In this document: positions 23,925 through 52,588 of the stretch, piece by piece
Layout of the letters: the number at the start of each line of letters is the position of its first letter
Position numbering within the stretch: the first letter of the stretch is position 1
NCBI GenBank assembly: GCA_021613535.1
Contig: CP075492.1
Coordinates: forward strand, 19,592,001-19,656,000
Length of the DNA: 64,000 nucleotides
DNA from: Adineta vaga
Lineage: Eukaryota; Animalia; Rotifera
Direction of reading: 5' to 3'
Notes under the pieces: generated by a model
The model's database searches: none
What the model was told of the DNA's origin: nothing
The model's input: only the letters and a program-made list of their open reading frames with translations
Program-made: the position numbers and the translations under genes

Positions 23925-26900
23925 ATGGATGAATGTTCTATATGTAAAAATTCATTAAATTCTGAAAAACTCGATGAAATCACAACTTCATGTGGTCATA
24001 CATTTCATCGTGAATGTGCTCAGAAACGTTTAGATAAGTTTAAAAAAACCAACTGTCAAGTTTGTCGCCGAGAGAATACTCTTGGTGATGCTTTGAAGAA
24101 ATATAAAATGGGAGCTTCATCGAAAATATCAAGCTCGAATTCTTATTCTCGAGTTGCAACAGGACGTGTAGGTTACTCGATTATAGTCGTATAAATGTTC
24201 ATCCTCGCTCGATTTTATCTTTTTAGGAGAGAAGAGAACTTTCTCCTGTTGCTTCTGCTCGACCTCATTCGCATCATTCAAAAGATAATAATGAAAACAA
24301 ATGGTCATGTAGAAAATGTCAGAAATCAAATCATAATTCTTCAAAACAATGTCGCTCGTGTGGTACATACAAAAGAGATGACGAAGACCATTCTCATCAA
24401 CAACAAAAAAGTAAAAAACAAGGTCAGTTTTTCTTCATATTCTCTTAAAACGAACATATTTAAGTTACTTATCATTTTGATAATTTAGAAAGTTTAGAAA
24501 TCAATGCAGAAACTTGGTATGAAACAGAAATGCTTCGTCATAAACCGAATATCGAACCGTTTCTACAGAATTCTGAACATATTATATTTCATTATAAATG
24601 GAATCCTTATATATGGCGCGAACAATTTCAATCTTTAAAGTCTGATAATGATCGAACTCGTCAATTATTGCGTATGACAGTAATGTTAAATACAATTGGT
24701 ACATTATTCAAGAAAAGTTATATAGTACATGATCGTCAAGTGAAATTGAAATCAGGTAATACAATAAAATTAATAATTTATGATCATCAATCAAAATTAT
24801 CACATGGTGGAAAGATACCAATATTAGATACACCATATAAATCAACTAATATTGAAGTAATTAAAAGTGATGGTATTGAACTTTATGAACGTCTAGTTAA
24901 AAATGGTAGACGACCAGTTCTTCTTCAAATGACACATTGGAAATATCCTGGTAGTGAATATAAAAAATATGATGGAACACAAGATGAAAATCTTTTTCGA
25001 CAATCTGATTATTTTCATTGTCTTAATGTTGATCTTGAACAACATCAACAAGATCGACCAAAACGTTTTCATTGTTCATCTGATTGTCAATTAGAATCAT
25101 TATCTAATCAAAATAATATACAACGAATAGATGATTTTGGTATTATTTATACATCAGGTATAACTATATTTCGTCAATCAGAAGAAAGTGGATATGCTTA
25201 TATGGATAAACCATTAGAAAATGTTAATATATTAACAATAACTTCTTATGAAAATCCATCTTTAGAAAAAGATATGTTATCTACAAAATATGCCATGGCA
25301 ACACGAAAGAAAATTGAAAATATATTTTCAATTGCTTATCATCACAAACATGATTCACTTGTTTTATCAAATTTTTCTTGTGATATAAATAAAAATCCAG
25401 TTGATCATATTGTTCAATTATTTTCTTCAGTTATTGAACAATATGCTGGTTTTTTTAAAACAATTATATTTGCAATTCCTGATAATAATGATCAAAATCA
25501 TCGATCAAATTCAAAACAAATTTTTCAATCATTTGAAAAACTTGAAGGCACAATAAATGCAATTACACTTATTAGAAAATCAAATACAATCTTTGGTCCT
25601 TATAGAATTTTATCTGAAAATGTACAAACGAATGATATTGATATTTGTGATTTATCACCTTGTCAATTTGGAGCGAAATGTCGTGAACGAAATAATGAAG
25701 GACATATAGGAAAATTTTCACATCCACCTTTATGTTCCAAATCTTGTCTTACAGGTAAATGTGATCAAACAAATAATATTGTTCATATGTATTCATTTGT
25801 TCATCGTAATCAATGTCAATATGGTGGAGAATGTCGTCAAATTGATGATGATAAACATTGTCAAGAATATGAACATCCACCATCTTGTTCTGCTGGTGGT
25901 ACTTGTAAAAATACAACAGTAATTCATCTTCGAGAATATCGTCATTTACCACTTTGTCGACATTCACAAAATTGTATGGATTTAAGAAAAGGAAATGAAA
26001 AACATTGTAATTTATTTCGTCATTGTGCACTTATTTGTTCACATAGAAATTATTGTGCTGATTTTCATGATAAAAATCATTATAATGAATTGGAACATTC
26101 GTTTCCTCCTCCATGTCCATTTACTCCGTATCATTGTTCTCTTCATAATGAATTAATACAAGCATCAGCAACTCAAAAACCTTCAAATGAAGCTCAAAAA
26201 CATTGTCTTGATTTCAGTCATGTTTGTCGATTCGGTAGAAATTGCAGAGATTCAAATTCATTACATATGGACAAATCGATTCATGTAGCTCGATATCAAT
26301 GTCCAGATGGTAAGACATGTACTAGATTGAATCAAGAAGAACATTTAAATTCATTTACACATAATAATATTCTCGATATTCGACTTCTTTGTCGACATTC
26401 TAATCAATGTCATGATCGACATAAATTGGATCATATTATTAAATTTCGTCATAATCTTTATTCAGATGATAGTGGTGTTGTTCGTTATTTTGGTTTAAAT
26501 AAAACAATTGATTTTGTTTATAATCATAAAGAAAGTATTGAACGTATCAATAATTATATTGAAAATGAAAATTGGGAAAAATTACCATTAGGAACTATTC
26601 CAAATGAAATTTTAAATTTTATTCAAACTGTTCAACCAGTTCATCGATGTAATCCAGTTATATTTGAATCAATTATTCTTCATGGACATGTTATGAGTCG
26701 ATCTTATATGGAAAAATTGAAAATACCATATTATGTCGCTAATTCAGTATTACAACATAGTCGTATAAGAAAAATAAAATCTTTAAGTATCAAAGCAGTA
26801 GAACAAAAAGCTAAGGATTATGTTATTGCGTTAGTTCAAGATGAATTTGAAAGACAAGGATTTATACAATCGGATAATAAAACAATAGATCCACTTAGTC

Positions 26901-29052
26901 ATACAACTACAATAACTGTAGCATCATTAACAAATCAAATTAAAGTCAAAGAAAATCTTGTTTCATCTTCGATTGAACCTAATGATATGGAAGCATTAAA
27001 ACGAATAGCAATTGAAATTGCTCAAGCTTGTATTAATCTTCATACAAATCCAGCTGGAATTGGTTATGTAGTAGATAAAGATTTAGGAACTGATAGAACT
27101 ATTTTTAGTGTTCTTGGACCACATTTAGGACATTATTATGGTGATATTGTTATTATTTTTAAACGTGAAATTTTACATCATCCCGATGCGGAATTTTCTG
27201 TTCAAGCAGGAACTTCATTTGCTAGTGGAAAAGCTTATAGTTGGCGTCCATGGTTAGGTGATGATCCAGATTCTCGTGATGAAAATATACAATTATTTCA
27301 TAATTCTAAAATACATGCATCAGTTCCAGGATATGATTATGCAGCAGCTTTAGAATTAATGGCTATTACTAGTTGTTATCTAAATAAGAATTCAATGAAT
27401 ATAGATATGAATGAAATAATAGAACGATGGATTCAAGCTGATTCACATCAAACAATCGAAGCTCATTTACCTCAATTAGTTCCACTTGATTATATTGATC
27501 ATATTTATATGCCAAAAAATATATTTGAAATGCTCAATCCAGCAACACGTAAATCTATAGAAGCAGTTTTTAGAAATCGTATTACTATCACTCCACATGA
27601 AGGAACTGATAAACCTGATTTTTCATTTGGTCCGACACCTTCTACAGATGAGCGAATTGAATATCAAAATTTTATTATCAGTGAATTATTGAAACGATTC
27701 ATAGGTCGTACTAAAAATTCATTATCAAGACCTATTCAAGGTGCCATAATTACAATACCATCATTATCGTTCAATGATCATTATGTATTACCATTAACAA
27801 TTTCTCAAGCTTATAAACAATATTGTAATGATGATACTAAATCATTAACAGATGATACTATATTTATTTATTGGCAAGTTATGAATGGAGATATGATGTT
27901 AACACTATCAAACGAACAGATTAATCTACATGAAGCACAACCAAATATTTCTTGTTTAGTTTGTTATGTTGCTGAAACACCAGAAGTAGAAAGTAATCAT
28001 TATCATGAACAATATTCCTATTTAAATAATAGTAAACCATTTTCACATGATGTAATTATTAAAAATCGTAAATATGTTGCTGGTTCAAATACTTTCTATA
28101 TTGGATGTAATACTGGTGATTTTCTAACTTTTTGTCTTCAATTACAACCATCAACTGGAAAAGTAACATTATCTCATGCTGGTGCAAATTCAATTTATAA
28201 TCGTCAAATAATTACTTATACATTTAATAAATCACAACTTGATTTAACTAATTTAGAATTTCTTCATGTAAGTTCTGGTACACGTATTGTATCAATTCGA
28301 AATGTGATGATTTGTTTTGAAAAACAAATGAATTTACATCCAACATATGATCTTTATTATACTAAAAGTACAGAATTAGTTGATGGCATTTCTTCATCAT
28401 CAAAATCTGGCTCATTGATTCCATGTCGAGAAAATGTTAATTGTCTTCTTCAATTATTATCACAAGAAAAAGAACATAATTCTAAATATAGTCATCCATG
28501 TCGTTTTTCTGAACTATGTAGAAATCATGAACCAAATTTAACACACGAACCACATCGAGTATCAACATGTCATGAAGATGAAAATTGCAAGAAACTTGTT
28601 GATCCTTTTCATCGTGTTAAATATCGTCATACAGATTTACCTGATTATCTTATTCCTTGTCGATTTCAACAAAAATGTGATGATAAATCAGATAAACATC
28701 GAATAAGATATTCACATGGAGAACAAGTATTTAACACGACAATAATATCATCATTATCTGACGGTATTTAAAAATCTCTTTTTAAATAATATCTTTATCA
28801 AAACTATTTTCTTTGATAGAATCAAATGAATCATCTTCTGATGATCGAATTCCTTGCAAATGGGGTGTAAAATGTCGAGATATAAGAGATAGTCGACATT
28901 GTCAAAGCTATTCTCATCCTGCTATTGAAAAACTTGTTGATCATCGAATTCCTTGTAAATGGGGTGTATATTGTCGAGATATAAGAGATAGTCGACATTG
29001 TCAAAGATATTCTCATCCTCAAACTTTACAATCGGATGAAGATGATGATTAA
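23925..29052 (+). CDS. Paralog B: RING-H2 + RanBP2-type Zn finger + degenerate PARG macrodomain + PBZ-like finger array + putative ART-like domain + C-terminal PBZ-like fingers
   Basis: Exon 1 encodes CSIC...CGHTFHREC...CQVC. Exon 2 encodes WSCRKCQKSNHNSSKQCRSC (24302-24362). The large exon from ~24489 is colinear with paralog A, and its PARG motifs read PGSEYKKYDGTQDE and SNFSCDIN. The last exon has two RIPCKWGVxCRDIRDSRHCQxYSHP copies. Confidence 0.85.
28415..28733 (+). repeat. Inverted near-identical copy of 16721-17039 (gene-conversion tract)
   Basis: Two identical tracts of 202 and 93 bp in otherwise clearly diverged paralogs. Confidence 0.9.
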
Positions 29053-29976: not shown

Positions 29977-31266
29977 TTAATTACGAAAACGTTTAAATTT
30001 TTCTTTAATAACAATATTAAATTGATTTCTATATGTTTGTGATGGTAATACATAAACAATAAATGTCATCATTGATGGTAAAAATGAAAGAAGATAAGCA
30101 GATAAAAATAAAAAAGAATAATTTGGTGATTTCATACAACCACTTATAAATGATATAATAAGACGAGGTAATCCTAATATAACAAATATAAATGATGCTA
30201 TAAAATGATGATTATGTTCTTTAAATTGTAATTTTAAATGTTCAATATAAGATAATCTTGGTTGAATTGTTGAACGATGATGAGCTAATGATATTATTAT
30301 TATTATTGTTGAAATAAAATTAATTGTAAATGGTATTAAAAAATGAAATAATGTTATAAATGAATTATATATATTAATTATAGAAGAATATTGAACAATA
30401 CACCAAATACGTTTTTCATCAATATCAATATCTTCAATTAATTGACGATGAAATGGATCATGAATATGACTAAGAATTGTAATAAGAAAAACAATTAAAA
30501 TAATCCATTTTGCTATTTTTTTACTTTGTTTTTTATTAAATTTAACACCTTGTTTAACTGTTATAACACGTTCAATAGAAATACATCCATCAAGCCAATC
30601 ATTTATTGTTAAAAGAATTCGAATTAAAATATCTAATAAAATACAATTAAAATTTAAAATAAAATAATTATTATAAATATTCATTTGTGATAAAAGTAAA
30701 TGAATAAATTTAATTAATAAAATAAATATAATTAATAATGAAATCCATCCAGATATTAATAAATAACTTCCACAACCAATAGTTTGACTTTGTTTCATAC
30801 GAAATGTTACAATAGAAAATAAAGCATTAATAAATCCAAAAATAAAAATAATAATTATTAAAATTAAACTAATTTTAATAATAATTGGTTGATAAATCAA
30901 TGAAATATTTGGTCTAATATGATAACTAAGAATATAATCAAGTGATAAAACAAAACCTTCAGTTGTTAATTGACATCTTGTACCATAAAAACAACCTGAA
31001 CAAATACATTTAATTGTACTTGAACATGTTTGATTATTTAAAAAACATTTTCCATTATTTTCACATGGATTTTGTGTTTGATTACAATTAAATGTTAAAT
31101 TTCGATTAAATAAAAAACAATTTGAAAATCGATCTTCATCACAAATACACATATAAATTTCATCATAAAAACATTGTAATTGTTTATTTTCTCGACATAA
31201 TAATGGATAATATTTAATACGATGAAGATACGAATATGTTTTTAATGTTTTATTTAAGAAATTTTC
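29977..31266 (-). pseudogene. 3' part (EGF + 7TM) of an LDLRa-EGF-7TM receptor gene disrupted by transposon insertion
   Basis: EGF motif NPCENNGKC...CICSGCFYGTRC followed by 7TM (WLDGCISIER). It joins in frame to 43675-46800 after removing the element and one TSD copy: ...NQCLFIENF|LNKTLKTYSYLHRIKYYPLLCREN... Confidence 0.9.
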
Positions 31267-31311
31267 GAGGGCTGCGCAAATACAAATACAACTTGTACTT
31301 TACTTTTTATA
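31267..31311 (+). repeat. Left terminal inverted repeat
   Basis: GAGGGC-TGCGCAAATACAAATACAACTTGTA-CTTTACTTTTTATA; the 25-bp core 31273-31297 is the exact reverse complement of 43644-43668. Confidence 0.92.
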
Positions 31312-31325
31312 GCTTTTATACACTA

Positions 31326-31901
31326 TCATGTATTGACCCTACTTTCCCCTTTTCAGCTAGAATCGGTTGTCTTGTATTCTCATGTATTGCCTTGTATTGC
31401 CATGTAGTGACCCTACTTTCCCCTTTTCAGCTAGAATCGGTCGTCTTGTATTCTCATGTATCGACTCTACTTTCCCCTTTTCAGCTAGAATCGGTTGTCA
31501 TGTATTCTCATGTATTGACCCTACTTTCCCCTTTTCAGCTAGAATCGGTTGTCTTGTATTCTCATGTATTGACCCTACTTTCCCCTTTTCAGCTAGAATC
31601 GGTCGTCTTGTATTCTCATGTATTGACCCTACTTTCCCCTTTTCAGCTAGAATCGGTTGTCATGTATTCTCATGTATTGACCCTACTTTCCCCTTTTCAG
31701 CTAGAATCGGTTGTCATGTATTCTCATGTATTGACCCTACTTTCCCCTTTTCAGCTAGAATCGGTCGTCTTGTATTCTCATGTATCGACTCTACTTTCCC
31801 CTTTTGTGCTAGAATCGGTTGCCTTGTATTCTCATGTATTGCCATGTACTGACGCTAATTTATCCTTTTGAGCTAGAATCGGTTGTCATGTATTCTCATG
31901 T
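31326..31901 (+). repeat. Left subterminal tandem array, ~10 copies of a 54-bp unit
   Basis: Unit TCATGTATTGACCCTACTTTCCCCTTTTCAGCTAGAATCGGTTGTCTTGTATTC with minor variants and no unique spacers. Confidence 0.95.
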
Positions 31902-32525
31902 GTTTGCATACACTGTCTATACTTGTGGGTGTGTAGTTTAGAACTGGTGAACTTTAACCATCATGTGCTATTGTGTAGTGTATTGACACGATTTTGGAGG
32001 TAAAAGTTTGAAGTAGTTAAGGTATACTTTTATATACGCGCCTGTGGCGGTTCTAGTTTTGGTATTAAGCGGAATTTATGCTTCTCATGATGGAAGTTTG
32101 TTTTTGAATATTATGATGAGTGTCGTCTTAGTAATTGGTACTACTATGAAAGAATATGTTTGAAACCAACATGACCAAAATTATGAATGTTAAAGAAGAT
32201 ATAATGGTACGAGTGAATCTTTTGTGACTCGGAGTGTTGTTGTAGTTTAGATAGGTTAGAAAATTGCTCATATGCATTTTTCTTTAGAAAAAACTCGATT
32301 TACTTTAAAATAAGTGTTAATTTTTGTAGTTGCGTGTTTTCGGATATATTGATTTTGTGTAAAGATTTTTAGAATTGTTTTATTGTGACGATATGAATAA
32401 TAAATCACAAGAAAAAGAAAGACAAAAAAGTAAAAGTCTGATGATGTAGAACAAACTACAAGAATTTTGTTGAGATAATGAATTTTATTGTGTAGATGAC
32501 GAGAAAATAAAACGATGTAGTTGTG

Positions 32526-34838
32526 TTAATCGGAAATTGTATTGAATGAATTGTCATTGGCGGAAAAGTTGCCTTGAGCATAATTTCGATTGTATTCGAA
32601 TTGACCATCACACATGTTACGCTCGGCATTCATTAAATGAAATAATATTAAGTAAGTAATACGAATCTTTTTGGAAGAATATGAGGATAAGGCATTTTGA
32701 TATTGCTTCAATATACTGTTTCGTTGTTCAGCAGCTTCAGTATTGATTTTGATTGCTCCTTTATATGCATAGTCGATGTTTCTTTCTTTTTGACACATTG
32801 GTCGTTTGTGATTTTGTTGATGAAAACGATCAATAAAAAATAAACATCGGGAAATTAAATTTGATGATGGTGTTTGTAAAATACGTCGATTAATCTCAAT
32901 CTTGTCATAACGATTCCAAAATAAGTATATAAACTGCAAGCATTATCATAAATCAGTATATTTGGTAAAAATTGATGATGTTGATTGTCAACTAGACTAA
33001 TCATTCTGAATAAATGCCACAAAGCTATATAACAGGATTCTGAATGATATACTTCATCAAAGCCAATGATTATTCCACATGGAGATAATGTATATATAAT
33101 ACCTTGTGAAATTTTCTTCTCCATATCGACGAAACTAAAAGTAAAATAATTATTAGAATTAAATCCGTACGAATGATCAAACTGTATTATTTTATATTTC
33201 AATTCAAAGAATAATATCACATCTATATCTTTGTAATCATCATTGTCAAGCTCATCAGTACAGAATTTCTTAAATGATGGAATAAAATCAATTTACCAAG
33301 AATAATCTAGTTTTTATTTCAGAAATAATATGAGTATAATTATCATATTTCTAATTCTCTGTACTTAAATAATAATAATAAAAAAATCATATTGATAAAT
33401 GTTAGTAGATCTGTAAATTTCCTCTTGATGTTTTCTGAATCAATTGTATGCAACTTAAACTGAATGATAATGAAACAGATTCAGTGATTAACATTTTTTA
33501 CGTACCGATCTTCTCTTGATACATTGCAGCCAGTTGTTGGATCATCATAGATACCTTTGTCATCATTGGTTTTCAAGTATGTTTCATTATCGTGTATTAT
33601 TTCTTCTTCTTTACAGCGTTCACATAAACCAGATTTTGATTTGGGCGTATTGCCACATCCGACGTAGATGCCATCAGGAAACTCACTGGTTACAAGCATT
33701 TTGTTTTTGTTATTACAGATTACTCTTGCCACTTTTTGCATTCCGTCTACAACAAATGCCGTCATGCAATCAGCACCTTGGAATTGTTTTGTAGAATCAC
33801 ATGGATGGGTTCGATGGTGTATTGCCCAATGGTTTACAAAATCACTGTACCATTGATCATAGTTAACATCAAAAAATTTATAAATTGATAAATCATCGAG
33901 TAACTTTGGTATTTCAAGTTGCAAAGTATCATTCATAAAGAAGGTAAATAAACATAATTGATAAATGAACCAGATATTTGAAAAATATTCACGACTAATT
34001 TCCGACATTATTTCATTCGACTAAAATATACAACAACATTAAAATAGATGAAATATATATGACATCCGTTTCATTGTTTTTCTGTTATTTCAAAACTGTG
34101 AGAAATTTCTAAATATTTTTTGTTTCTGATGTCATAAATGCTTACTGTATGGGTATTTGCAGATAAAGTAATATATTTTTTGATGGTTAAATTGTATGAA
34201 TTCTGAAAGTTTTCAAAACCAGAATATTGTCTGAGAAACGCCGATGTAAAATGTATCAACAATTCTGTAGAGTAAACTTTCTTTCCACCAAAGTAAATAT
34301 ATTTTTGGTTATAGATTGATGCTGGTGTGACAAATTTTGCACCAATAGTGATATGTTCATAATAATTTGGATAATATTTCATTCTACAATTGTTGCAAGA
34401 AGAATAATAAACACCACCTTTAATGATCGATCCCATATTATAAATTGTGACATATTGATTAAATGAAATTTGAAGTTCCTGTTTACAGGTTAGACATGTA
34501 TTTGTAAATGGTTTAAGACAACTTAATGTTGCGTTGGTATCAGATATTGAACTTGCAATATAATTAGTTAGCAACTGATCAACATCATAGGAGTGAAAGA
34601 GCTGTTTCAACTCTCCATTATTTAATCGATTAATTATTTCATTTACTGTTGTAACGGATAAATCAGTATTAAACATTGTATTAACCATAATTTTAATATC
34701 GGTCACTCGAGTTGGTATATCATGATCCATACGATTATTCAGATCATTTATCAATTGCAGAACATTGATTTTGAAGTGTCTATGTAATGTAATGATGTAA
34801 ATTTCTTCATTATCTGTCAGTAAATAGTTAGATGACAT
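32526..34838 (-). CDS. KDZ-family DDE transposase with CxC5- and CxC6-like cysteine clusters (multi-exon; one apparent frameshift)
   Basis: CxC5-like LKPxxxxCxxC...CNNCRMKYYPNYY...GFENFQNSYN; VVDG (33742-33753); CGNTP...CERC; SPCGIIIG...SES; LIYDNAC; IDRFHQQNH...C; NTEAAEQRNS. A 1-nt frameshift lies in the A-run at 32918-32921. Confidence 0.85.
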
Positions 34839-35527
34839 GATAATGTCGATAAAATAAAATAAAATTATGCAGTATAAATATATCTATAAGAAATAAATCA
34901 CAAATTTCCAGATTTTTATCACATATAGCTAAAAAATATTATGTAATTCGTCACTCATTTTGTAGTCAAATGTTGAAATTATAAAGAGCTAATCGTTTTA
35001 CTCAATGTATAATAAAATTTCACTTTCTCCTTATTGATGACAATTACAATTTCATTATCACAGTTCAATTTCATATTTATTCAATATGATGCAAGCAGTA
35101 TATGTATAACAAACAAAAAATGAAAGCAAACGAGAAAATGTATCTGTTCGAACAAATAATTACTAAGCATGTCAGTTATTTAACAAAACAGAAAACGAAA
35201 AAAAAGAGTTATTTTCTAGAAGATCATACGAATGTTCATTAAGATGATATGAATTGCATATGATATGCAATATAAGAACAAGATAAACAATAAAGACTAG
35301 CATTAAATCTCTTAACTTGATTAAATAATTTTCAATTACTAGACCTACACGTAAATAGGAAAACAAGAAAAACAGTTATAAGAACACAAGAGTATCAAGT
35401 ATAACAAAAAGTAAACAAAAAAAAACAAGAATAGTTCACAATAAAACACAAGATGAAGCAGAAATAAATGGCTAACACACAGACAAAACAAACAAAGCAG
35501 AAATTAATACATCAAACAAAGATAATT

Positions 35528-38500
35528 TTAATTTTCAATACGTCGACTTTTTGACCTTGTTCTGATTGGACTTATAAGACGTCTTGTTCGTTTTGGTGTT
35601 GATGAATTCGTTGATGCTGAGGCATTCGATGAGATATCTATAATATAAAAACAATCATTTTAATAATACGTTGTTGACTGCTATAATCAAATATTTCAAA
35701 CGGCAAGTTGAAATTAATAATATTTATATACTGAACTCTGTATTTAAGTATCTCGAATAATGTCAAACATGTGAATGATTAGATATCAAGTACTCAGATA
35801 ATTCAACGATAGATTGTACAATTCATGTGAATTCAAACTACCCTATTTTGAAAACTTCGTCGTTTTTCTAAACATATAAAAAATAAAGAAATGTTAAAGC
35901 TTGTTACCTGTGGTGACTGAGTTCAAATGAATAGTTTGAATTTCATCAGAGGATGGACTAGTTGCAGCAGCTTGAGATGGAATCACAGCAGTACTAGCCA
36001 AATTTGCAGCACTTGAGTTTGAATCTATAATTTTAAAATTCTTATACAAATCAGCTCCAAAAGGAAGTATATTGTTTCTTTTTAGATGCTTTTTATAAGA
36101 TAATTTTCTCACTGAAGCAACTTTGCTTATAAAATAATAAAATTCCGATAAACTATCCATCATACAGTGTATTGAAATGAAATTAGTCGATAAATCTAAG
36201 TATTACCTGAATCATCTTGAACTAATGTAATATTGGCGACATTATCTAATGTTAGATCAGGTTCAGCATATTCTAAATATTACAAAAAACAGTCATACAA
36301 ATGAAAATGCTTATACAGAAAACTTACCAACTGACATCATCGAAACTGATGATTCTGATTCATTAATGGTCGGATTGCGTACTGGTTCCGGTATGTTCAA
36401 TGTTTCTGAATCTATAAAGACAAAAGATTTACATTTTTTCAAAAATATTCGACGCATTACTTTTGCTCTTCTTTGTTAATACGATAGATTCGTCCATGAT
36501 GAAACCCACATCCTGGTATGGTTTGGATCGGAGAATTTCAGCACCTTCTTTTGATATTAATGTTGTAGCGTTGTTATGACCAAATTCGATTTTTTTGAAC
36601 GATGACGCATACTGTTCCCATGTTATACCAAATATATCTAATTTTTTTTGTTGAAAATTCAATGTAATTGCTATATTGGTGGAATCATTTGGTAATATTT
36701 TAATCCAGCTGAGATAAGACTTGGTCGCAGTAGTTGTAAATTGCCCTTCCAACAACAGTTTGGCATGGAATAGTAGTTGAACGGCTGATTGACATAAATC
36801 GGAATCGCCGCCAAATCGACGATTCCAACTCGTTTTTGTTATGATTGGTGAGCCGAATAAAAGCATTTGTTTGCATTTTAACATAATTCGTCGTGGTATA
36901 GTTTTTGGATCTTCTAATGCTCGTACTGGATCAAATGCATCCAATGCATTTTTGGAAGACGATGATGAACCTTCAAGATTTTTGGATTTGTTGCTGTCTA
37001 AAATCAAAAATATTTGCTAAGTAATACATATTATAAGTATATCTGAAAATACCTTCACGGCTTAAGTTTTCCTTTGATGATATTTCACTTATTTGACTTC
37101 CATTTGTTGATGCTGAACAGTCCTTGTGTACATGATCCGATTTTTCATTGCACTGTCCGCTAGCCGGTATTGTAATATGGTTTGGTTGATTACCTTAATG
37201 AGAGATGAAAAAAGTGTATTGAAATACAATATATAACTATACTATTAGAAAAGAATTCATCAGGTGTTGATGTAATATGAACATGAGTTTTGAATTGCTT
37301 ATAAGTTTCGATTTCTAAACAAGAAAAAAAAGAATTTTGTTGGTTAATACAAAAATAAGAGCGACATATTTTAAAGAAAAATAGATAAGCGGAATACCAT
37401 GTAAAGGAAGATTATCTTGATTGATCATTTCAGATTGATGCTGCACAGCTAATGATAAGGTTTTTGATGCATGATTTTGTTGAACATCTGTTTCATCTTG
37501 TAAAATCGACGAATCTTGACTAGTTGATCGATTTTTTTCTAGAATACATGCACAAAATAAGACAAAAAAGGACATATAAATAATATATTGCAATTGATGA
37601 CGATTTCTTTCTTTTCAGCCTACCAGTTTCTTTGTATGCAGGTGTTGAATTTTCATGATTGACTGATGTATCAATAATATTTTGTAAATTATCCAATGAT
37701 GCTGATTCTATAAGACGCAAAAAGAGAAAAGAGCGAAAAAATTATGAAAATAAAAAAGTAATAATGTAGTATTTACCTTGTTTAAAAATATCACCTTGTT
37801 GTTGTACTTCCATTTCACTGATCGAAGAATCATCGTTTTTTGGTTCCAAAATAGCATGATGTCCAACTATGATGAAATTATAGTAAATAAGTAGAAAATG
37901 AATATTTTCGATTACATTATTTTTATACAATAAAAAGTCCTTACTTTTTGTTTGTTCTGATTGGTTATTGGATCGATTTACAGTACTTGTTAGTGATCGT
38001 TGACAATTGATTTCTCGATCTCCTGAAATGAAATACAGTTTTTACAATAATTATTAAACTAGAGGGTGTATTTAAAGTTCCTACCAGTATTCAGTTGTAA
38101 AATTTCGGACAACTCTGGATAATTTTGTAAAACTGAAATATCACCAGTTGTGATGTTGCCTGTGAAATGAAATAGGCGGTAAGCTACAAGAGCGAAAATT
38201 TGAAACATCTTACTTAAATTTAAAGATGGATCATCTTGTATTGCAGTATTAGTTGTTTGTTGGTTATCTGGTGCATCACTCGATGACGGATTCAACGTAT
38301 GAAGATGATGGATTGCTAAAAAAAAAGAAATTCTGTAAAAAGTGAAGGCAAAAATTTTCAAGCATTTCTTTATAACAAAATAATATCAAACCTTTCTGAA
38401 GAACACTAATATGCTTTACTTAATTACCTGTTGTCGATTCTTGTAAAGAATTTGAAGGATTTGAAATAAGTGGTGATTGACGAATTTGAGTATCGTTTGT

Positions 38501-39414
38501 AATAACACCATAAGGATATTGATTTTGCAATTCTCGAAAACCATCGGCCGTCAAAGATGTATTAGCTGGTAAAATATAGCTATTTTCGTAAATCTCTTGA
38601 TATTCTTCCCATGATACGTGATGCTTATTTAATTCAAATACTAATTCTTGTTGTTCCAATTCATTTGATGGTAAATGTTTCAAATATGATTCATATTTAA
38701 CAGAATGTTCGGATTTTAAATAATATCCTTTCTTTAAAATACCACGACGAACCATACGTTCCAATAAATAACTGATTAAATCTTTGTCAATATTTTTCAA
38801 TATACCGTCGTTACCATGTAATGTTGTTTTATGGAAGACACGATATGTAAGTTTTACAATTTTTGTTTGTAAGGTTAATTCAGATTGTGTTTCTTTTACA
38901 TCATTGTTAATACGAGAATTCATCAGTGTAAAATGTTGCGGCATCAATAAACTAAGAAATATGGATACTGATTCTTCACATGTTTGTTTGGTAATGATCA
39001 TTTTCGATTGTGTATTCGTTGCCAATGCAGTATTTTTTGGTAAATTGTTTGTTGATAATCCATATTTTAATTGAATTATAGCTTCGACCTGGTCAATAAA
39101 ATTTTGATTACATTCATGAAAATCGATATTATTAACTTCATGAATAATTTCAAGAATATTTTTCATATATTGTATGTTTGATGCAATACGCACAATCATT
39201 TCGGCACCACGACGTTCAACAGCTTGTTCGTAAGATGTAATTGCACGGGAACTAATGCCAACATGTGGTTTATTTGAGTTCAAAGCATTTAAATAAGGTT
39301 GAATGTATTCAGATGCATCGGCATCAAATGTTTGCATTTTCTTTCCTAACATGCCACGAACAGCAAAGATGTGAGTAAGTGATGGTTGTGAACGGTCCAG
39401 ATCGATTTCTTTTC
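35528..39414 (-). CDS. Transposon-encoded multi-exon protein of unknown function: two homologous globular modules separated by S/T/Q-rich linkers, basic NLS-like C-terminus
   Basis: ORFs 39352-38420 and 37007-36429 share the pattern GxLxxGxF/Y...SY/WxKxLP...xxV/IxWExY. Many small GT-AG-bounded exons lie between and after them. The last exon ends TPKRTRRLISPIRTRSKSRRIEN*. The single-gene model is inferred. Confidence 0.55.
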
Positions 39415-40129
39415 CTAAAAAATATTAAATTATGATACAGGTTTGAAACATCAAATTGAAAAAAATATATAAAATGTTCGTTTAAAAATTCTTTCTTCTT
39501 TTTGTCGACTCGATTAACGAACGGTGAGTGCAAACGTATGAAGTTACATAGACAATATGATTACAGCTTACATACAATTAAGATGTAACTTATATATCTA
39601 TTATCATTCTTCACTAAATAATTTTTTAAATTTAATAGTAGACAGATCAATATTAGAAAAAAATAACATGATCACAAGATGGAGCCACTAACCGAAATAC
39701 GCTAAAATTAAATAGATAGATGTGATTTGAAACTCAAGATACATCTATCATATTACCACGGTAGAAAATTATATCTAAAATTCTGATTTACATGATACGG
39801 ATTCATAGTATAGTGTCAAATTTATTGGACTAGGGGCAATTTTTTTCTGACAAATATTCTATTTTTATATTATTTTCTTTGGATGAAAGTTGATTAAATT
39901 TTTTTATTTTTCGAAATGATTTAATTAGTCTAATATGATTTCTAATCTCCCAGATTGTTATGAATTTTCTTCAATGCATTCAGTATCTCATGTGTTTTTT
40001 TATGATACATGGTTCAATGATCACGAGATGAAATAGATAACGTTTAAAAGTTCGAAGTTATTTTCAAAGCAAAGTTTGAAATATTCAAAAATTCTTCTGT
40101 ATCATTATGAGCAATAGTTCAATATTTAT

Positions 40130-41604
40130 TTAAGAGAAGTTAAAATATCTTTTTCCATGGCAGTTTGAAGTTTTACAGTCTGGATCTTTACATTTAATCT
40201 GGTAATTATTTGTAAATGTATCGATGATGATGCAAGTTTGATTTGACTTGTGATGACGTTGTAATCGTTCACAAAATCGAAAATCACCGCCAATATTAAA
40301 AAATAATATAGATCGATTTTTGCTACCCTTTTGACACGATTGTATGTGACCGTTCGTATGATATGTTTCTTTCATTAATTTGAAAATAAAAGTTTTATAA
40401 TATTCTTCATTGTTAGATAAATCTTGTTTGCATTTTGTCGCTGTTGCTTGAATTAAGTTATTTTGAATTGTAAATTTAGCTATTGTGCTTGAATCCGCGA
40501 AATTGTAACTAGGAGTTAATTCAGTTATAGAATTATCATGTTCATTCATCGCTACCCATTTATTATCATTATAAGATAATACTACAATATTTGAATCATC
40601 TGATATATAAGCTATTAATGAATGTTTAAGCATCGAATGATCAATGCCATCATTGTTCATAGATATATCGTATTGTTTATTGCATGGATTAAAAGGAAAA
40701 TCTGATGTTGGTAACAAAGGATTGTGTTTTCCAAATTTCGTCGATTGATATAATCTAAATTGTTGATTATTACTATAAACATTAAGATCAAAAATCCATT
40801 GATATAAACCATCTGAATCTAGCAAGAATAAAATAAAACTATATATGTGAAGTACAAAAAAATAAGATTACTTTTGAAAAGAAGTTTTTGAAAGTTTTTA
40901 CAGGTTACTTTTGTTTCAGGTATTATACAACTACAAAAATCTATATGCATTAAAATCATTTGTAAGCATTTAATACAGCCATCGAGATCATTTGCTGCAT
41001 TCATACTATTTGGTTGTACGAGATGTTCATGACATGGATGCGATAATATAAAATATGAACAATGCTGTAATAACATTTTAATAAATTTAAATACAATTTG
41101 TTGTGAATGAAATCTAATTTCTGTGTTTGTGTATATTAAATGATAGCTGTATTTTGCTTCTGTTGTTGCACATAAAACAAGAAAATGATCCCCAATTCCG
41201 GTTGATTTTTTCGTGTATTTATTAGTCCAATCCAAAATAAAACAATGGAAAAGATTTTGTAGAATTAACAATGATTCTTCAACGTTCATTGTCAACGAAT
41301 TTGTTATATGAATATCAACATCAAAGTATAATTTACAATTTTTTTTTTCACACAAAACTTCGTATAGTGTTCGTTTCGATACATCTAAGCTTTGTAATAC
41401 CTTCGATAATTCATCGAATGTTACGTTTAAAAATAAGCGTTTCCGATTTTCATGTTCAACACCAATAATGATCGACTTTTGTCCATTTTCTTTCATTACT
41501 ATTACATCGTCCAATAACGTACGAAGTTTATAGTATAACTTAGCACTTGGTAAAATGTAATGAATATAATGGGTACCTTGAGGTACAGTATAACTTGACC
41601 ACAT
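40130..41604 (-). CDS. PrimPol-like AEP primase-polymerase with UL52-type Zn finger (2 exons, intron 40819-40871)
   Basis: Motif I LYEVLCEKKNCKLYFDVD, motif II ATTEAKYSYHLI, motif III FDLNVYSNNQQFRLYQSTKFGK, and Zn finger RFCERLQRHHKSN...KCKDPDC, all matching eukaryotic PrimPol motifs. A 53-bp GT-AG intron joins the ORFs in frame. Confidence 0.92.
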
Positions 41605-41945
41605 ATTCGTAACCAAAAATAAACGATTAACACAGAAGAATCCGTCATTTCCAATCATCCCTCGTCTATCCAATAACCGCTAATCAACCATTTAAACCAT
41701 AGGGGTCGCTAACAGACCACCCAACTTTGAACACTGCTTCACTTTTCTCATCAACATAAAGTTCATTTACCGATTAAATTTTAAAAAAATCACACCTATT
41801 TAGTCAGTATTTTCCACATTGCGTCTATGGCTTGTTCAACTGCTTCCGAATTAGCAAGCTACAAAAAAAACCGATTAAAAGAATCAAAATACTATGCAAC
41901 TTTCCATCATTTGTCCGTTTTATATAACATTCCACTGTCGGAAAG

Positions 41946-42999
41946 ATCATACGAATTGTATCCTGATCTAGATCGAGGAAGATGGAAAAAAATAAAAATA
42001 ATATGATCATCATACGAATTGTATCCTGATCTAGATCGAGCAAGATGGGAAAAAATAAAAATGATATGATCATTATCTGAATTGTATCCTGATCTAGATC
42101 GAGCAAGAGGGGAAAAAATAAAAATAATAGGATCATCATACGAATTATATCCTGATCTAGATCGAGCAAGAGGGTAAAAAATAAAAATAATAGGATCATC
42201 ATACGAATTATATCCTGATCTAGATCGAGCAAGAGGGTAAAAAATAAAAATAATATGATCATCATACGAATTGTATCCTGATCTAGATCGAGCAAGAGGG
42301 TAAAAAATAAAAATAATATGATCATCATACGAATTGTATCCTGATCTAGATCGAGCAAGAGGGTAAAAAATAAAAATAATATGATCATCATACGAATTGT
42401 ATCCTGATCTAGATCGAGCAAGAGGGTAAAAAATAAAAATAATAGGATCATCATACGAATTATATCCTGATCTAGATCGAGCAAGAGGGTAAAAAATAAA
42501 AATAATATGATCATCATACGAATTGTATCCTGATCTAGATCGAGCAAGAGGGTAAAAAATAAAAATAATATGATCATCATACGAATTGTATCCTGATCTA
42601 GATCGAGCAAGAGGGTAAAAAATAAAAATAATAGGATCATTATCCGAATTATATCCTGATCTAGATCGAGCAAGAGGGTAAAAAATAAAAATAATATGAT
42701 CATCATACGAATTATATCCTGATCTAGATCGAGCAAGAGGGTAAAAAATAAAAATAATATGATCATCATACGAATTATATCCTGATCTAGATCGAGCAAG
42801 AGGGTAAAAAATAAAAATAATAGGATCATCATACGAAGTGTATCCTGATCTAGATCGAGCAAGAGGGTAAAAAATAAAAATAATAGGATCATCATACGAA
42901 TTGTATCCTGATCTAGATCGAGCAAGAGGGTAAAAAATAAAAATAATATGATCATCATACGAATTGTATCCTGATCTAGATCGAGCAAGATGGGAAAAA
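41946..42999. repeat. Internal tandem array, ~17 copies of a 63-bp unit with palindrome GATCTAGATC and an A-rich tract
   Basis: Unit ATCATCATACGAATTGTATCCTGATCTAGATCGAGCAAGAGGGTAAAAAATAAAAATAATATG; the copies are near-identical. Confidence 0.95.
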
Positions 43000-43263
43000 C
43001 AAGTGAGTAATCAATGATTTTCAATAGAACGATTTGTAGGTATTTTAAAAAACTTACTGAAGCATTCGACTGAAAATACTGATCCTCAATTTCGCTATTC
43101 ATCCTGTGAGGGAAAATTGGAATAATGAGAAAAGGTAGAACTAGATACTTAACAAGAACTAAAAAGTGCACCTCATGAATTTTTGTCATTGCTGCTTGGT
43201 TGATAAAGAGACATATCACAGCAAATTAGCCGATACTAGATATTAGGTCTGTATAAAGTGAGT

Positions 43264-43505
43264 GCATGACAATACATGACAATACATGACAACCGATTCT
43301 AGCTGAAAAGGGGAAAGTAAGGTCAATACATGACAATACATGAGAATACAAGGTAACCGATTCTAGCTGAAAAGGGGAAAGTAGGGTCAATACATGACAA
43401 TACAAGACAACCGATTCTAGCTGAAAAGGGGAAAGTAGGGTCGATACATGACAATACATGACAACCGATTCTAGCTTCACAGCATAAGGTAGGGCCAGTA
43501 CATGA
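43264..43505 (-). repeat. Right subterminal array, ~4 copies of the same 54-bp unit in inverted orientation
   Basis: CAACCGATTCTAGCTGAAAAGGGGAAAGTAGGGTCAATACATGA is the reverse complement of the left-array unit. Confidence 0.95.
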
Positions 43506-43628
43506 ATAATAGTTGTAGTATACTGAACGAAAAATGGGTAAACCTGTGAGGACGCAGTTATAAGGAAGCATCTTTTGAGGTAAATATATATGGTTTGAAA
43601 AGAATATATACTTGAAAATAATATATAT

Positions 43629-43674
43629 ATAGAAAAGGTAGAATACAAGTTGTATTTGTATTTGCGCATCTCTG
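43629..43674 (-). repeat. Right terminal inverted repeat
   Basis: Reverse complement reads CAGAGA-TGCGCAAATACAAATACAACTTGTA-TTCTACCTTTTCTATA. Confidence 0.92.
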
Positions 43675-46600
43675 AAATTTTCAATAAATAAACATTGATT
43701 ATTTATTAATAAATTTGTTTTAATTAATTCTGATTGAATATATTTTTCACGACGAATAATTAAATAATATTCTTCAAAAAAAGATATTTCAATAAAAATA
43801 AGATGAAATGGAATTATTGTATGAATTATAATACGATTATCATTATGTTTAATTTGTTTTAATAAAATATTTTCTAAATGATTTCTTGTTTCATATATTG
43901 TTATTAAATGAATAAGAATAATTGACATTGATTTTATTGTTTTTTCAGATAATATTATTTCAATTCGATTTTCAATATTTTCACATCGTTCTCCAAAAAA
44001 ACCTTCTTTACATATACATGTAAAATTGTTTAAAGTAATACGATTATCAATTGGAATACATTGACCATTATTTTTACAAGGATTTATTAATGATTGACAA
44101 GATGAATGTTTTAAATAACATTTTTCACCAAATTTATATAATGAACAAATACAAATTGATGAACTAAGACAAAATGAATCAAATGAACAAGAACAATTAT
44201 GTTTTATTTGACAATTTAATCCTGAATAACCTGAATTACATTGACAAAAATATGATGAATTTTCATTAATATATTTTATACATTTACCATAATTTCCACA
44301 TGATAATGAACATGACAATTCTATTTGTTGAGGATTTAAAGGTATTAATAAATGTGTTGAAATTCGATTAACAGGTAAAAATGGAAATAATATTCGAAAA
44401 TACCAACTTGACCAATATTTTAATGTTATTCGATTAAAAATATCAATACGTATTGAATAATTTATTGAATTATTCTTTGGACGATTAGGATAAAGTAAAT
44501 ATAAATTATATTTTATTCCACAATCACGTTTTGGAACATAAATTATTTGTTCATAATAAGGTGTTATTTCTCCTTGATCATCTAAAAGCATAATAATAAC
44601 TTGAAAAATAGGCATTTCATATATAAAACTATAATATTTTAATTGAATTGTTAAACTTATACGTTGATTTTGCCATTGACATCGTAAACCAAAATAACTT
44701 GGTGGACAAAGACATCGAATTATTTGATTATTTTTATATAAAATAGGAAATCCTCGATTACAATACCAATTATTATCAAAATCTTTATTAATTGGATTAT
44801 TAAATTCAATTAAAGTTGATTGATGAGAAACTTTTGGAATAATAACTGATGGAAAATATCCTAAACGTAATGATTGAAGAAATGGACGTTGGAAATCATC
44901 TGATATAGGAGAAAAACGAAGATGACATAATCTTTCTTTATTTTTCATAACAATATTTTGTATTAATTGAAGAGTTCGACGAAAATTTGGTATTAAACAT
45001 ATATCATCATTATTACCAATAAGAGAATGTGTTTTATTATTATTATTATATTTAATAGTAATACATTTATTTTCATTCCAAAATAAATAAGTTTTATTAA
45101 TATTATTTATATGTATAATACGTTCAATAAATTTAGTTGTATCAATATTTATATATTCTTCTACTAAATTTAATACAGATATACAATAATCTTCAGCAGG
45201 TCGACCACCTTCATCATATTCACAAAAAAGTTCATTTGATGAACAATAACTACGTGAACAATTAAGTTCATCAAGACCATTTAAACAACTTGAATATTGA
45301 TTACATCGAGTATAAGGATTATTACATGGCCATAAATAACAATCACTTTCATCTGTATCGGTTTCATTATTATAATAATATGGTAAATCTTGATGACCAT
45401 CACAAAAATATCCAAATAAAAGTTTCTTAGGTGATTCATTACTTCTCATTTGTAAATTCGAAGGAATTCTTTTTTCATCTCGAGTTGTTTCAAAACAATT
45501 TCTAAAAATATTTGGAAAAATATTTTGAAGTGAAAACCACATTGTAATTATTGTACGAGTTATATTAATTCCGTTACAACAATGAAGACCATTACGCATT
45601 CCAATATCTATTGAACAGAATAAATATTTTGGACATCGAGATCCATTAAAACATATAAAATCAGGTGTAAGATCATTTCTTGATCGATTTGTTAAATAAA
45701 TAAATTGAAAATATGAATAAAGTATTGGATATTCAGGAAAAACTAACCATTTTAATGGACAATGTTCAAGAGGAATTTCACAATGAATTTCATTTTGTAA
45801 ATGTGAAAGAAAATCAATTCGATCAGGACGAAGTAAACATAGAAGATATTGTCGACATGATAAATTTGAAATATAATCAAATGAAGTAAATATTGTCATA
45901 GTCATTTGTTTATCTCGTAAATTTCGACAAAAAGAAAAAAAAATTTGGTATAAATCTTTGAATAGATTGACCATCACCACATGAAAATGGATTATAAAAT
46001 CCAAATGATACTTCTTCACATTCAAATGTTGGAGATCTCATACAATTTTCTCCAATTAAATAATTCATTAACAATTTATCAGTACCATCAAGACAATTAT
46101 AATTTTTTTCATGATCATCAAAAAATGCTTGAGGAATACATTCTCCACTTTTTTGACAATGAAATTCATTTTCTGTACATTGATTTTGTTCTAATAAATA
46201 ACAATATTCTTCATCTTCTCCATTAATACAATCATTTATTCCATTACATATTTCACGCCAATCAAGACACATTGGTAATGGACCACGAATACAAGTTGAT
46301 AAAAATAAATAACATGAACCAATATAATAATTAACATCTAATGATGGTTCATTACGATAAACAAAAAAATCAGAAATAAGTTCACCAAATGATGGTTGAT
46401 TCATATTAATTATTCGATATTGACATTTTGAACCAAACCAAGTAGATGAACAATTATAAAAATATTTATTTGAATTCTTACCATTAATTTCATAATCTTC
46501 GGCTATATCAATTGGAATAAACCAATCTAATAATTGTAAACTTGTTATTCCTTTTTCATATAATTCTTTAAAACTTATTTTATTTTTAATATTTTCATTT

Positions 46601-46800
46601 TCATCATTTAATCGTTGACAATAAGGTATTAAATGATAAAACATCATATAACCTCCACTATCGATTTTATATGAATATAATATATAAGAATATAAACAAA
46701 CAAATGTTGATTGAAATTCTTGTTGATTAACTGTATGATAAAATGTAAAACGACAATGATATTCAATAAATAATAAGAGAAGAAAAAGAATAAATTTCAT
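43675..46800 (-). pseudogene. 5' part (signal peptide, LDLRa and EGF repeats) of the disrupted LDLRa-EGF-7TM receptor gene
   Basis: MKFILFLLLLF signal peptide; LDLRa CLDWREICNGINDCINGEDEEYC; EGF motifs CLCPPSYFGLRC and NPCKNNGQC...CKEGFFGERC. An additional frameshift lies in the homopolymer at 45935-45943. Confidence 0.9.
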
Positions 46801-49800
46801 GTTTTATTCAAAAGATATTCAAATGAAAAAGAAAGAAATATTCTTTTCTACTTTCTCTTTTAGACAAAATAAATATCTGTCTTTTTACTTTCCTCTTATT
46901 TTTATTTGAGAAGAAAAAAATAAAGATATGATCAAATACATTTTCTATACATTAATTTTGAATAAATTATATATCATAAAATTTGTATTTATTAAAATAA
47001 ATCAAGAATATATGTTTATATTTAATGATAAAATAGATTTTAAATGAAATCTTTTCTTTTATATTATTTAAATTTTAAAGAATTTAATAAAGGAAAATTG
47101 TGAATATTTCTTATTTATTTATTTCATTTTATTTTCAATGTTTTATTATACAATTACAATCTTATCTATTGAAACTTTTATTTTCTTATCAAATATTTAT
47201 TTTGTTTAACTTCCTTTTCCCATCAACATATAAACTAATTGAATTTCCTGAGAAAAAAAAAATGTAATGTATTAATAATATCTCGTAGAAATCTATATTT
47301 TAAGAATTGTTATCAAAGAAAAAGTTTCTTATTCATTTATTTACTTATATAATGTATAATTTCATAATATTTTTAAATAAACAAGGAAAAAAAAAACCTA
47401 TCACTTTTTTTTACATTCAAATCTAGATTATTTTTTTGAAAACTATTCTTATATTTTCTATATATTTATCATATATTAATTTAATATAAGAATATTTCGC
47501 TTAATAAATATATTCGTTTATTTACATTTAACAATGAGATCAATAATTGTTTGTATTTAAAATAAAGATTTTTTTATCATTTATACAATATTGTATCTTA
47601 AACAATAATTATCTCACATGTAATTACAAGTTTATATAGAAAATAATACATATTATATTATCTCTAAAGTATTATCACAGTTTTACTCAACTTCAATCAT
47701 TAATTTATCAAAAATTTATTTAAATCTTTTTATACTTAACCAAAAAGATGATAAATTATTCTAAACAATAATCAGAGGAAAATATAATCAAATCATTATT
47801 AACTGATTATTTTACTTTTACAAGTTAAGTATTTCAGATATACAAAAAATTATAATCAACGTCAATAAAGAAATTTAATCTATTGTGAAGTATGAAAAAT
47901 ACATATAAAGATGATCTACATATTATTTTCAATTCAAATCACATACATTGAAGAAAAACCACTAAAAATAGGTAATAATAATCAATAGTTCATGTAGACT
48001 TGATCCATTAGATGTATAGAAAAAAAGAAAAAGAATAATGAAAATGTAGTCACCAATAAATTCATTGACTGTGTCTACAGAAATCTATTCAACGTGATAT
48101 TCATTTGTTTTTCAGTTGACATTTCATAATTAGAAGAAATTCCATGGAAATTATAAACAAAATATGATTATTTTTTGAAGTACATCTATTCAACTAAAAC
48201 TAAGAAGATATAATAGTTAATATCATCTTTTCATCAATAATAATTTAAATTAAAACGATATTATTTAGAATATCAATAATAATTATATTAAAAGTGAAAA
48301 AGATTTCTATTTGATCAACTAAATTACAAAAGAAAACACTTTTTTCTTTCTTTCTATTAAATATATTAATTATTGGAACAATTGAAAATCTTTTCGAACA
48401 AAATCCTATATATTTGACATTTTTTCAAGAAAATATTGATTAATCAGCGTAGAAACATAGAGTGAACGATGCTTTATCGAATTATTAGAAAAAATAGAAT
48501 CACCACTAGGACTCTTGGATAACCCTCAAGTATATTTTAATTTGTTTTCATTGAATATACAATTCTAAGGGTATCTATACTTCCCAAAACTGATTATAAA
48601 TTTTTTGAATATTCCTAGATTATGTGTTTTGCTTGTGATCTTTAGTTCATCTGAACAGTTACGACTATTTATGTCGTCTGAAGAGTTCTTTATTAGAGAC
48701 AAAATCATGATCACGATAGCTACACTCACATCCGACATGATTTGTATTAAAGCAATGTTATCTTGAGTAAACATCTCTGATCAAAATTACGTAGTTGATG
48801 AAAAGACATTATTATTAGACTTCTTATAATAATCAGAATTTGTGGTATCATTTTCATTAACAATACCTGAAAGTAAAAGAAATAGAGAAAATATTATTTG
48901 TATTTGAACAAAGTTTCAGATATCAATGGATGATCAATACTATAGAAAATCGAGAAATATATTTTTTATATAAAGAAGTCTAGAATTATGATTCAACAAG
49001 TTTTTGTTTTTCTTCAATTATCAACAAATGAAAATAAAATATTACGTTGGTATAGATAATACGTGTGTATGAAGCAAGTCTTATGTAGCTTATCTAAATC
49101 ATGTCTTTTCATTAAAATTAATGATTCAGATTGATATTTTTTGATGAAAATACGTCATTGATATGAAAAAAATCTCACATTTAGAAAATAAGTTTGGATA
49201 AAAAACCACCCTTAAATTTCTTTAGTCGTGTCATGATCAATTATTTCTGATGCAAATGACATATAATTTGACGTTTTAGTTAGTATTTACGATTCTATTG
49301 AATCATATTCAATCATTCTATTCTCTGTTTATTCCTTCAATATAATACATAGGTAAAAAAGTGTATCTATTCATATTATGTTAGAAAATTACCTGTTGGA
49401 AAAAGGAAGTATGAATAATATTCAATTATCAAAACAAATCTACGTAATACATCATTACGCAATTTAATAAGAACTAATATAAAAGGATTCTATTTCTCTG
49501 CTTTAAATCATATTAAATTTTCTTTCGATGAAAGATATTTAACTTGGTTTTGTGTTATTTCATCCAACAGTCTTTTATCCGAGGAAGTAAGTACTGTGTC
49601 GAAGCACCAAATTATGCTTAAAGATACTGATGAGTCTTTGATGCTTATTTGTATGTCTTTGACTGATTAGGTTTAATAGATTTCGAGAATTTACAGATAT
49701 TTTTGTTACAATGTGATTGTTTACTTTATGTTCCTCAAATCTTTTTATCAACTTTTTCAGTTAGTCGTGTCAATAACTGACAATTATTGTCTATTCTTCA

Positions 49801-51605: not shown

Positions 51606-51770
51606 TCATGCATCAATATCACAACCAAGACTTTTGATATAGTTTCGATCTTTTAACTTTATTTTCATATTTTATCTTTAATCAAGCTTTTCATACAGTG
51701 TTATTATCTAATCCAGAATAAAAGACGCGACTGATTTTCAAATAATTTTAGCTGAATGATAGCTAGCAAG

Positions 51771-51833
51771 TTGAGGGTGTGGGTGTGGGTGTAGGTGTGA
51801 TTCCTATACTCTCACCCACACCCACACCCTCAA
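51771..51833. repeat. 63-bp hairpin built from TGTGGG-type repeats
   Basis: Arms 51771-51791 (TTGAGGGTGTGGGTGTGGGTG) and 51813-51833 (CACCCACACCCACACCCTCAA) are perfect 21-bp inverted repeats. Confidence 0.9.
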
Positions 51834-52588
51834 GATGATCAATTGTTGACTGCAGCATTAATATATACTCGTTCATCTTTTGAACAAAGAAAGAAAAACC
51901 ATAAACAAGAAAACGACTTGGTTCTGAAGAAACAGATAGGTTAGTAAAAAATATAGAAAATTGTTGGAATTAAATTCTTCTGATTTAAATTTTAGTGAAT
52001 ATTTTCACGTATGAGTCGACGAACATTGAGAAAACGCGCTAAATGAACCTTCTTATTAAAGAACTAACTCTGAGTGAATGCACATAAAATTAAAAGATTT
52101 TATCATTATCAATCTCTTGATAATTTCTTCTCGTTAGACGAAATGTAAATTGTAGGTCATTGAAACGAATATTAAGATTGTCAAAAGCATAACAGAGTTT
52201 TTGAGCAAATGTAAATATTGTGCTTTATTAGAGGTGAGTATATCTAATCGCTTTCGGATGAGTTCACAGTGGTTGTGCGATGCACTTTACAGAAATTCTC
52301 AACTATTAAACTCTTATCTATATCGAATAAGATGAGTTGAGATGCTTTTATATTTTTTATTGTTATAAATAGTCTCTCAAATATCGAGATATTCTTGAAA
52401 AATACATTTTCTTCGTCGTTCAAACGATATGGAACTCATATGAAGTGTCATTCATAACTTCAAACCAAAGAAGAATATCACATGATGTGGGTCTTTCAAA
52501 AGAAGAAGAAAAATATGGAATAAATAAGTATATATATAGATATCACTTGTTTTATTCTATAAAAATGACAATTTTTGTTTGATGAAAT

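Follow-up and report, generated by a model that had tools for sequence, protein, structure and literature searches.

A KDZ-type DNA transposon of the rotifer Adineta vaga with a PrimPol gene and other replication-type cargo

Eukaryotic cut-and-paste transposons are, to our knowledge, thought to use host enzymes for all DNA synthesis, and the self-synthesising eukaryotic transposons that we know of use family-B polymerases (PolB). Here we describe a 12.4-kb unit located at positions 31267-43674 of a stretch of 64,000 nucleotides of Adineta vaga (contig CP075492.1, positions 19,592,001 to 19,656,000; hereafter, the window). This unit is a KDZ (CxC5, Kyakuja-like) DNA transposon that contains the genes of a PrimPol, of a protein derived from the DUF3987 family (ORF2, for open reading frame 2) and of a KDZ transposase, and it is a variant KDZ transposon in having replication-type cargo.

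Several described systems share part of these features. According to Kojima 2025 (PMC12730594), the Kyakuja group of KDZ elements has, as the A. vaga element does, a CxC5 domain, a D-D-H-E type core, cargo genes and a right end in TG, and target-site duplications (TSDs) are of 7 bp in Kyakuja and of 8 bp in Zisupton and Dileera. A 7-bp TSD is possible at this locus. However, the Kyakuja families described there lack terminal inverted repeats (TIRs), have CA..TG ends and carry TET/JBP cargo, whereas the A. vaga element has TIRs, inverted arrays, a left end in GA or CG and not in CA, PrimPol and DUF3987-derived cargo, and an animal host.

In bacteria, the insertion sequence (IS) excision enhancer (IEE) is a PrimPol-helicase that acts with DDE transposases at excision (PMC9943667; bioRxiv 10.1101/2023.06.07.543989). 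IEE is one fused protein that is encoded outside the IS and promotes element loss, whereas the A. vaga element itself contains separate genes for the two, the partner being MCM-like. Bacterial mobile elements also contain DUF3987 fused to archaeo-eukaryotic primases (AEPs), and PMC5862659 describes these replicons as an AEP followed by DUF3987 and winged-helix domains, an arrangement similar to that found here. Those are fusions of the PrimPol-PV1 type, in elements integrated by tyrosine or serine recombinases, whereas the A. vaga primase belongs to the human-PrimPol/UL52 zinc-finger type, its gene contains an intron, and this copy lacks an ATPase domain. Polintons, polinton-like viruses (PLVs) and Teratorn (PMC11296320, PMC6431247) likewise integrate into eukaryotic genomes, have TIRs and carry genes for replication, in some PLVs a D5 primase-helicase and in Teratorn a herpesvirus primase together with a DDE transposase. 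The A. vaga element differs from them in having no PolB, D5/SF3 helicase, capsid or packaging gene, and in using KDZ as its integrase. Finally, cellular PrimPol (human, PDB 7jk1) has the same motifs I-III and C-terminal zinc finger, but here motif I is DxD instead of DxE, the identity to lamprey PrimPol is about 25%, and the bdelloid clade sits on a long branch of its own and occurs in patchy copies. In agreement with the initial annotation, our literature search, with Repbase outside it, found no eukaryotic DDE transposon with a PrimPol.

Insertion site, ends and mobility of the element

A unit bounded by a TSD and TIRs with three co-oriented genes had been proposed from a first reading of the window, and it was recovered at the same positions with all three genes on the minus strand. 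Taking out the unit together with one TSD copy yields a stop-free EGF/7TM receptor frame of 1214 codons, and because its removal restores this host frame the insertion is real and young. The repeat AAATTTTC is present at both flanks, and a chance pair of 8-mers like it has, from flank composition, a probability of about 2e-4. Its length, previously given as 8 bp, is 7 or 8 bp, since the empty site is identical for an 8-bp TSD and for one of 7 bp, in which case the element would start at C 31266; 9 bp is disfavoured because the contigs with another flank described below retain base 43674. The imperfect TIRs contain a core of 25 nt that is identical at both ends (left copy 31273-31297). Both of the repeat arrays initially noticed are present, with the correction that the 54-bp array is found at both ends in inverted orientation; the two 54-bp arrays are likely to be transposase-binding sites. 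The 63-bp array lies directly upstream of PrimPol. A likeness of the 63-bp unit to the 54-bp unit was rejected (1406 of 2000 shuffles reach an equal score), and the long open frames across both arrays are taken to be repeat artefacts. The Rfam search gave no match.

To follow the mobility of the element, four DNA-like runs (X2, X5, X6 and X7) from four studies were aligned to positions 43478-44500; the kind of each run used here, DNA-like or RNA-like, is a guess. In three of the four (X2, X5 and X7), a contig of 1956 nt matches 43478-43674 without difference and then continues for 1728 letters unlike the window, this foreign flank being another insertion site. Thus, a further copy with an identical right end and a different flank exists. 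The X6 contig ends at 43674, as expected with more than one flank. Behind 43674, the four runs have 3, 3, 3 and 4 loose contig ends, some of which may be ends of related elements, and in X7 a loose end preceding 43674 is identical to window 31228-31257 (30/30 bases) and is the empty allele. No row bridging the element into the flank of this window was found among the matches listed for the four runs, and we infer that this insertion is absent from all of them. The runs with the other-flank junction contain 96-97% of the words of 32300-41800, and the PrimPol sequence, present in these runs too, likely rides in the other-flank copy as cargo moved with the element. At 43644 and 43650-43674 there are also contigs with the same TIR core that differ inward, e.g., with the loose letters AAAAGTTCAG before 43644 in X5 and X2, which point to related elements or miniature inverted-repeat transposable elements with common ends.

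The PrimPol, ORF2 and transposase genes

The PrimPol gene keeps motifs I (LYFDVDI), II (YSYHLI) and III (IFDLNVY) as well as the C-H-C-C zinc finger (CERLQRHHKSN...CKDPDC), and its relatives start at the Met corresponding to 41604. Splicing of its 53-nt intron is seen in run X17, with 149 letters on the short side, and weakly in X18, with only 23; X16 is unspliced and may be DNA. PrimPol is the part of the element best covered by RNA-like contigs, as presence only, and the uncovered parts of ORF2 and transposase in these runs carry no information. In the window the gene has a 1-nt frameshift after 40170, within a 4-base homopolymer. Runs X16 and X17, both from one study, have one extra T at this point that puts the tail in the frame of the relatives, and thus an unbroken version of the gene exists.

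The assignment to PrimPol is in agreement with the match of the relative P0005 to human PrimPol (7jk1; E 4.7e-8) and with the PF03121 domain of Atlas neighbours. Exon 1 retrieved 12 matches with 48-58% identity, the three that have a species name being all bdelloid, and the full-length search retrieved eight clade matches plus two distant PrimPols at 25-27%. In a tree of 20 rows, all 18 from the clade group together (100/100), well separated from the two of canonical type; they are not sorted by host genus, with weak deep nodes. The ratios of non-synonymous to synonymous substitution rates (dN/dS, Nei-Gojobori) were 0.36, 0.33 and 0.38 for the pairs among the window and two relatives (L001 and L002), suggesting purifying selection on PrimPol in the three pairs. 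Of the 34 clade records, 7 have a changed motif I or II. The R. magnacalcarata records have no zinc finger, and relatives in this species and in A. steineri are either broken or catalytically altered. This patchy and decayed distribution, together with the 55% identity between two close Rotaria species, tentatively argues against a canonical host PrimPol ortholog. Judged by these sequences, the clade appears to behave as a mobile gene. Conserved and spliced, the gene does not look like a near-identical capture of canonical PrimPol, a possibility raised at the outset.

The predicted PrimPol model is poor (pLDDT 49), it gave no match at E 0.001 in the viral fold search, and its top VIA fold row, human PrimPol, reached only Z 6.1. 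A scan of metagenomes with the PrimPol alignment gave 282 pattern matches, of which two are relatives; their contigs, 1.5 and 2.1 kb long, are too short to show neighbouring genes. No relative was found in the viral contigs, prokaryotic genomes or phages searched, and the TIR had no match in those viral contigs.

The second gene, first described as encoding an unknown protein, is present and can now be identified, through its relative P0148, as a truncated relative of DUF3987/MCM-like helicases. Its Atlas feature is DUF3987 (score 0.91, of low recognition value), and a search of cluster representatives retrieved 38 relatives. P0148, from a Didymodactylos cluster, has a DUF3987 match (E 5.9e-11) with a Walker A motif, and aligns with an ORF2 exon at E 1e-23, only from its residue 316 on. 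P0142, P0137 and P0148 keep the ATPase exons, and three N-terminal queries for the Walker A/B ATPase half found no credible match to the element among the matches listed. For the rest of ORF2, a crude model gives a stop-free spliced path to the conserved basic tail. The predicted model of P0148 is confident over the part kept by ORF2, and among its top fold rows are MCM lids (6xtx_4, 89 residues at 322-489 of the model, Z 6.6, rmsd 3.7) and winged helices at 505-583 and 737-830; a Foldseek search with an ORF2 relative gave no match at E 0.001, and a hidden Markov model search of PDB gave none. That ORF2 is helicase-related strengthens the idea of a replication module, while without its ATPase half this copy is less likely to be complete as a self-replicating unit. 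A wide and diverged family of DUF3987 proteins with tandem winged helices (P0052-P0076), whose distant members are 24-40% identical to ORF2, may mark further element families.

With regard to the transposase, the initial annotation of a CxC5/CxC6 KDZ enzyme holds for CxC5 (PF18718, E 3.3e-7, 30.9 bits against a cut-off of 26.9), whereas CxC6 had no Pfam match in any of the 12 rows scanned; a Cys/His pattern around VVDG resembles, by eye only, what we take to be the CxC6 motif. The KDZ model itself (PF18758) is weak (E 0.046-0.051, below cut-off). The candidate catalytic motifs VVDG, YDNAC, DRFH and NTE, whose residues we presume to be catalytic, are conserved in full-length relatives. Exon 1 shares 58-64% identity with proteins of Rotaria and A. 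steineri, and an identical record (P0077) is labelled Adineta vaga. A 1-nt frameshift lies in a run of four T (32918-32921), and its homopolymer form suggests an assembly error. Among the relatives, the R. magnacalcarata model P0130 (CAF2102007.1) combines KDZ with about 575 unrelated C-terminal residues, reverse-transcriptase-like by eye and with no Pfam match, that probably correspond to a neighbouring gene.

Features and neighbourhood of the element

Table 1. Coordinates of the element, its parts and its target gene in the window
Feature	Position	Strand	Details
Interrupted host LDLa/EGF/7TM receptor gene	29977-46803	-	target, outside the element
Left TSD AAATTTTC	31259-31266	+	7 bp, ending at 31265, if base 31266 belongs to the element
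Left TIR	31267-31311	+	45 bp, imperfect; 38/45 bases match the right TIR
Left subterminal 54-bp tandem array	31329-31904	+	Tandem Repeats Finder (TRF) core 31387-31841, 8.4 copies, 94% matches
KDZ transposase	32526-34838	-	exons 34838-34146, 34020-33506, 33134-32526
ORF2	35528-39414	-	C-terminal part of a DUF3987 (MCM-like AAA+) protein: helical lid, winged helix 1 (exon 39414-38428), Ser/Thr-rich linker, winged helix 2 (exon 36997-36461), basic tail
Spacer	39415-40129	.	about 700 bp, no detectable remnant of the missing ATPase exons
PrimPol	40130-41658	-	exon 1 41658-40872, intron 40871-40819, exon 2 from 40818
63-bp tandem array	41946-42999	+	16.7 copies, 96% matches; 10-bp palindrome and A/T tract
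Right subterminal 54-bp array	43265-43505	-	about 3.6 copies, inverted relative to the left array
Right TIR	43630-43674	-	terminates in ...CTCTG
Right TSD AAATTTTC	43675-43682	+	

Outside the element, two divergent long frames (16686-22112, minus strand, and 24464-28771, plus strand) each encode a microbial-type PARG (PF10021, E 7e-20 and 1.4e-7), one of them also with a PBZ finger; they are likely horizontally acquired ADP-ribose hydrolases. Two overlapping plus-strand frames (58464-59735 and 59632-60384) have no Pfam match and would reflect an intron or another assembly frameshift. Around the locus lie NHL-type repeat genes and a 153-bp coding repeat (713-1003, 6793-7806 and 50493-54112), which together with a second 7TM gene (3624-4718) form a cluster of expanded bdelloid families.

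Gene linkage in other bdelloids and possible roles of PrimPol

The linkage of the three genes could be compared only indirectly, using five KDZ clusters from outside A. vaga, with no R. sordida KDZ among them. In R. socialis, ORF2 adjoins KDZ (fused model P0105). In R. magnacalcarata, P0142 and P0118 lie on contigs of equal size (24,320) with accessions three apart, and ORF2 likely adjoins KDZ there as well. What recurs, in two Rotaria species, is the ORF2-KDZ pair; the PrimPol-KDZ link whose recurrence the initial annotation had proposed to check was not found outside A. vaga in any listed record. In R. socialis there are PrimPol-bearing contigs of about 15 kb. In Rotaria sp. Silwood2, two RPA70-like OB folds and the C-terminal part of a clade PrimPol are combined in the model P0016 (CAF3334255.1), and a single-stranded DNA-binding protein gene likely abuts PrimPol in another element.

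We tentatively favour, at somewhat less than an even chance, that PrimPol would serve as an accessory gap-repair or repriming enzyme of a recently mobile cut-and-paste KDZ element. The DDE transposase would bind the inverted 54-bp arrays, excise the element and insert it with a staggered cut. PrimPol could then reprime or fill gaps while the broken donor is copied again over 12 kb and the arrays, with the sister or homolog as template, or alternatively join the ends by microhomology; the donor site would be restored and the copy number would rise. The winged-helix remainder of ORF2 may act as a DNA-binding or scaffold protein, and the likely ancestor of the PrimPol-DUF3987 pair is a replication module of primase and helicase. 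Of the initial proposal that the element may prime or copy its own DNA or repair its gaps, the gap-repair branch fits better than a new self-synthesising class. Several observations weigh against a gap-repair role. Among the matches listed, neither accession nor contig size revealed a linkage of PrimPol to KDZ or ORF2 outside A. vaga. Between R. socialis and R. magnacalcarata, three KDZ clusters show 98-100% identity, as against 55% for the PrimPols found there; these three families are probably without PrimPol, which is then not generally needed. In addition, the dN/dS partners are relatives of unknown context, all the fold Z-scores of P0148 are below 8, and IEE (PMC9943667) removes elements instead of amplifying them and is not carried inside them.

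The same linkage data fit a passive cargo, a real if smaller possibility, in which an ordinary ORF2-KDZ transposon acquired a PrimPol segment from another bdelloid mobile element or from a host paralog, with no role in movement; this acquisition and the removal of the 5' half of ORF2 may have been a single event. PrimPol indeed occupies the place of the missing ATPase exons, P0016 is joined to RPA OB folds instead, and KDZ elements are known to acquire cargo, the transfer of TET/JBP between elements being termed 'passive' in PMC12730594. However, a mere passenger agrees less well with a spliced PrimPol with intact motifs that is the best covered gene in RNA-like contigs (presence only), with two replication-type genes side by side in primase-then-helicase order, or with a clade that is patchy and often decayed (7/34 altered), unlike a single-copy host gene.

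It is doubtful that the element synthesises itself, i.e., that PrimPol and an intact DUF3987 helicase replicate it after excision, starting at an internal origin (e.g., the 63-bp array), and KDZ integrates it, this copy borrowing the helicase in trans. In bacterial mobile elements, a primase together with DUF3987 constitutes a replicon module (PMC5862659). The relatives that retain ATPase exons, the RPA-like gene abutting a PrimPol relative in Rotaria sp. Silwood2, the position of the 63-bp array directly upstream of PrimPol and, as a hint only, the R. socialis contigs, whose length would fit a longer element, are consistent with this possibility. Against it, this copy was mobile although it has no ATPase domain, the three genes were nowhere seen intact in one element, and the ends enclose neither a processive polymerase nor a capsid gene; all larger frames between them were assigned and none is a PolB. 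Moreover, PrimPol has low processivity and is error-prone. A benefit to the host, by which PrimPol would be kept for rotifer DNA repair after desiccation while the element hitch-hikes, is very improbable: bdelloids do repair many breaks after desiccation and the gene appears to be under purifying selection, but its relatives are broken or catalytically altered in two species and its tree does not follow the host genera (deep nodes weak).

A broader proposal, which we consider unlikely at present, is that bdelloids harbour a class of replicative DDE transposons that would combine KDZ with a mini-replisome (PrimPol, a DUF3987 MCM-like helicase and sometimes RPA) and an internal repeat origin, without a family-B polymerase, the element of the window being an active, helicase-truncated member. 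With a mobile KDZ element that brings its own PrimPol and a helicase-derived gene, in a cultured laboratory animal that has filled and empty alleles, it is directly testable whether a DDE transposon supplies its own priming or gap repair, and DUF3987, known from bacterial primase-helicase replicons, is now placed inside animal transposons.

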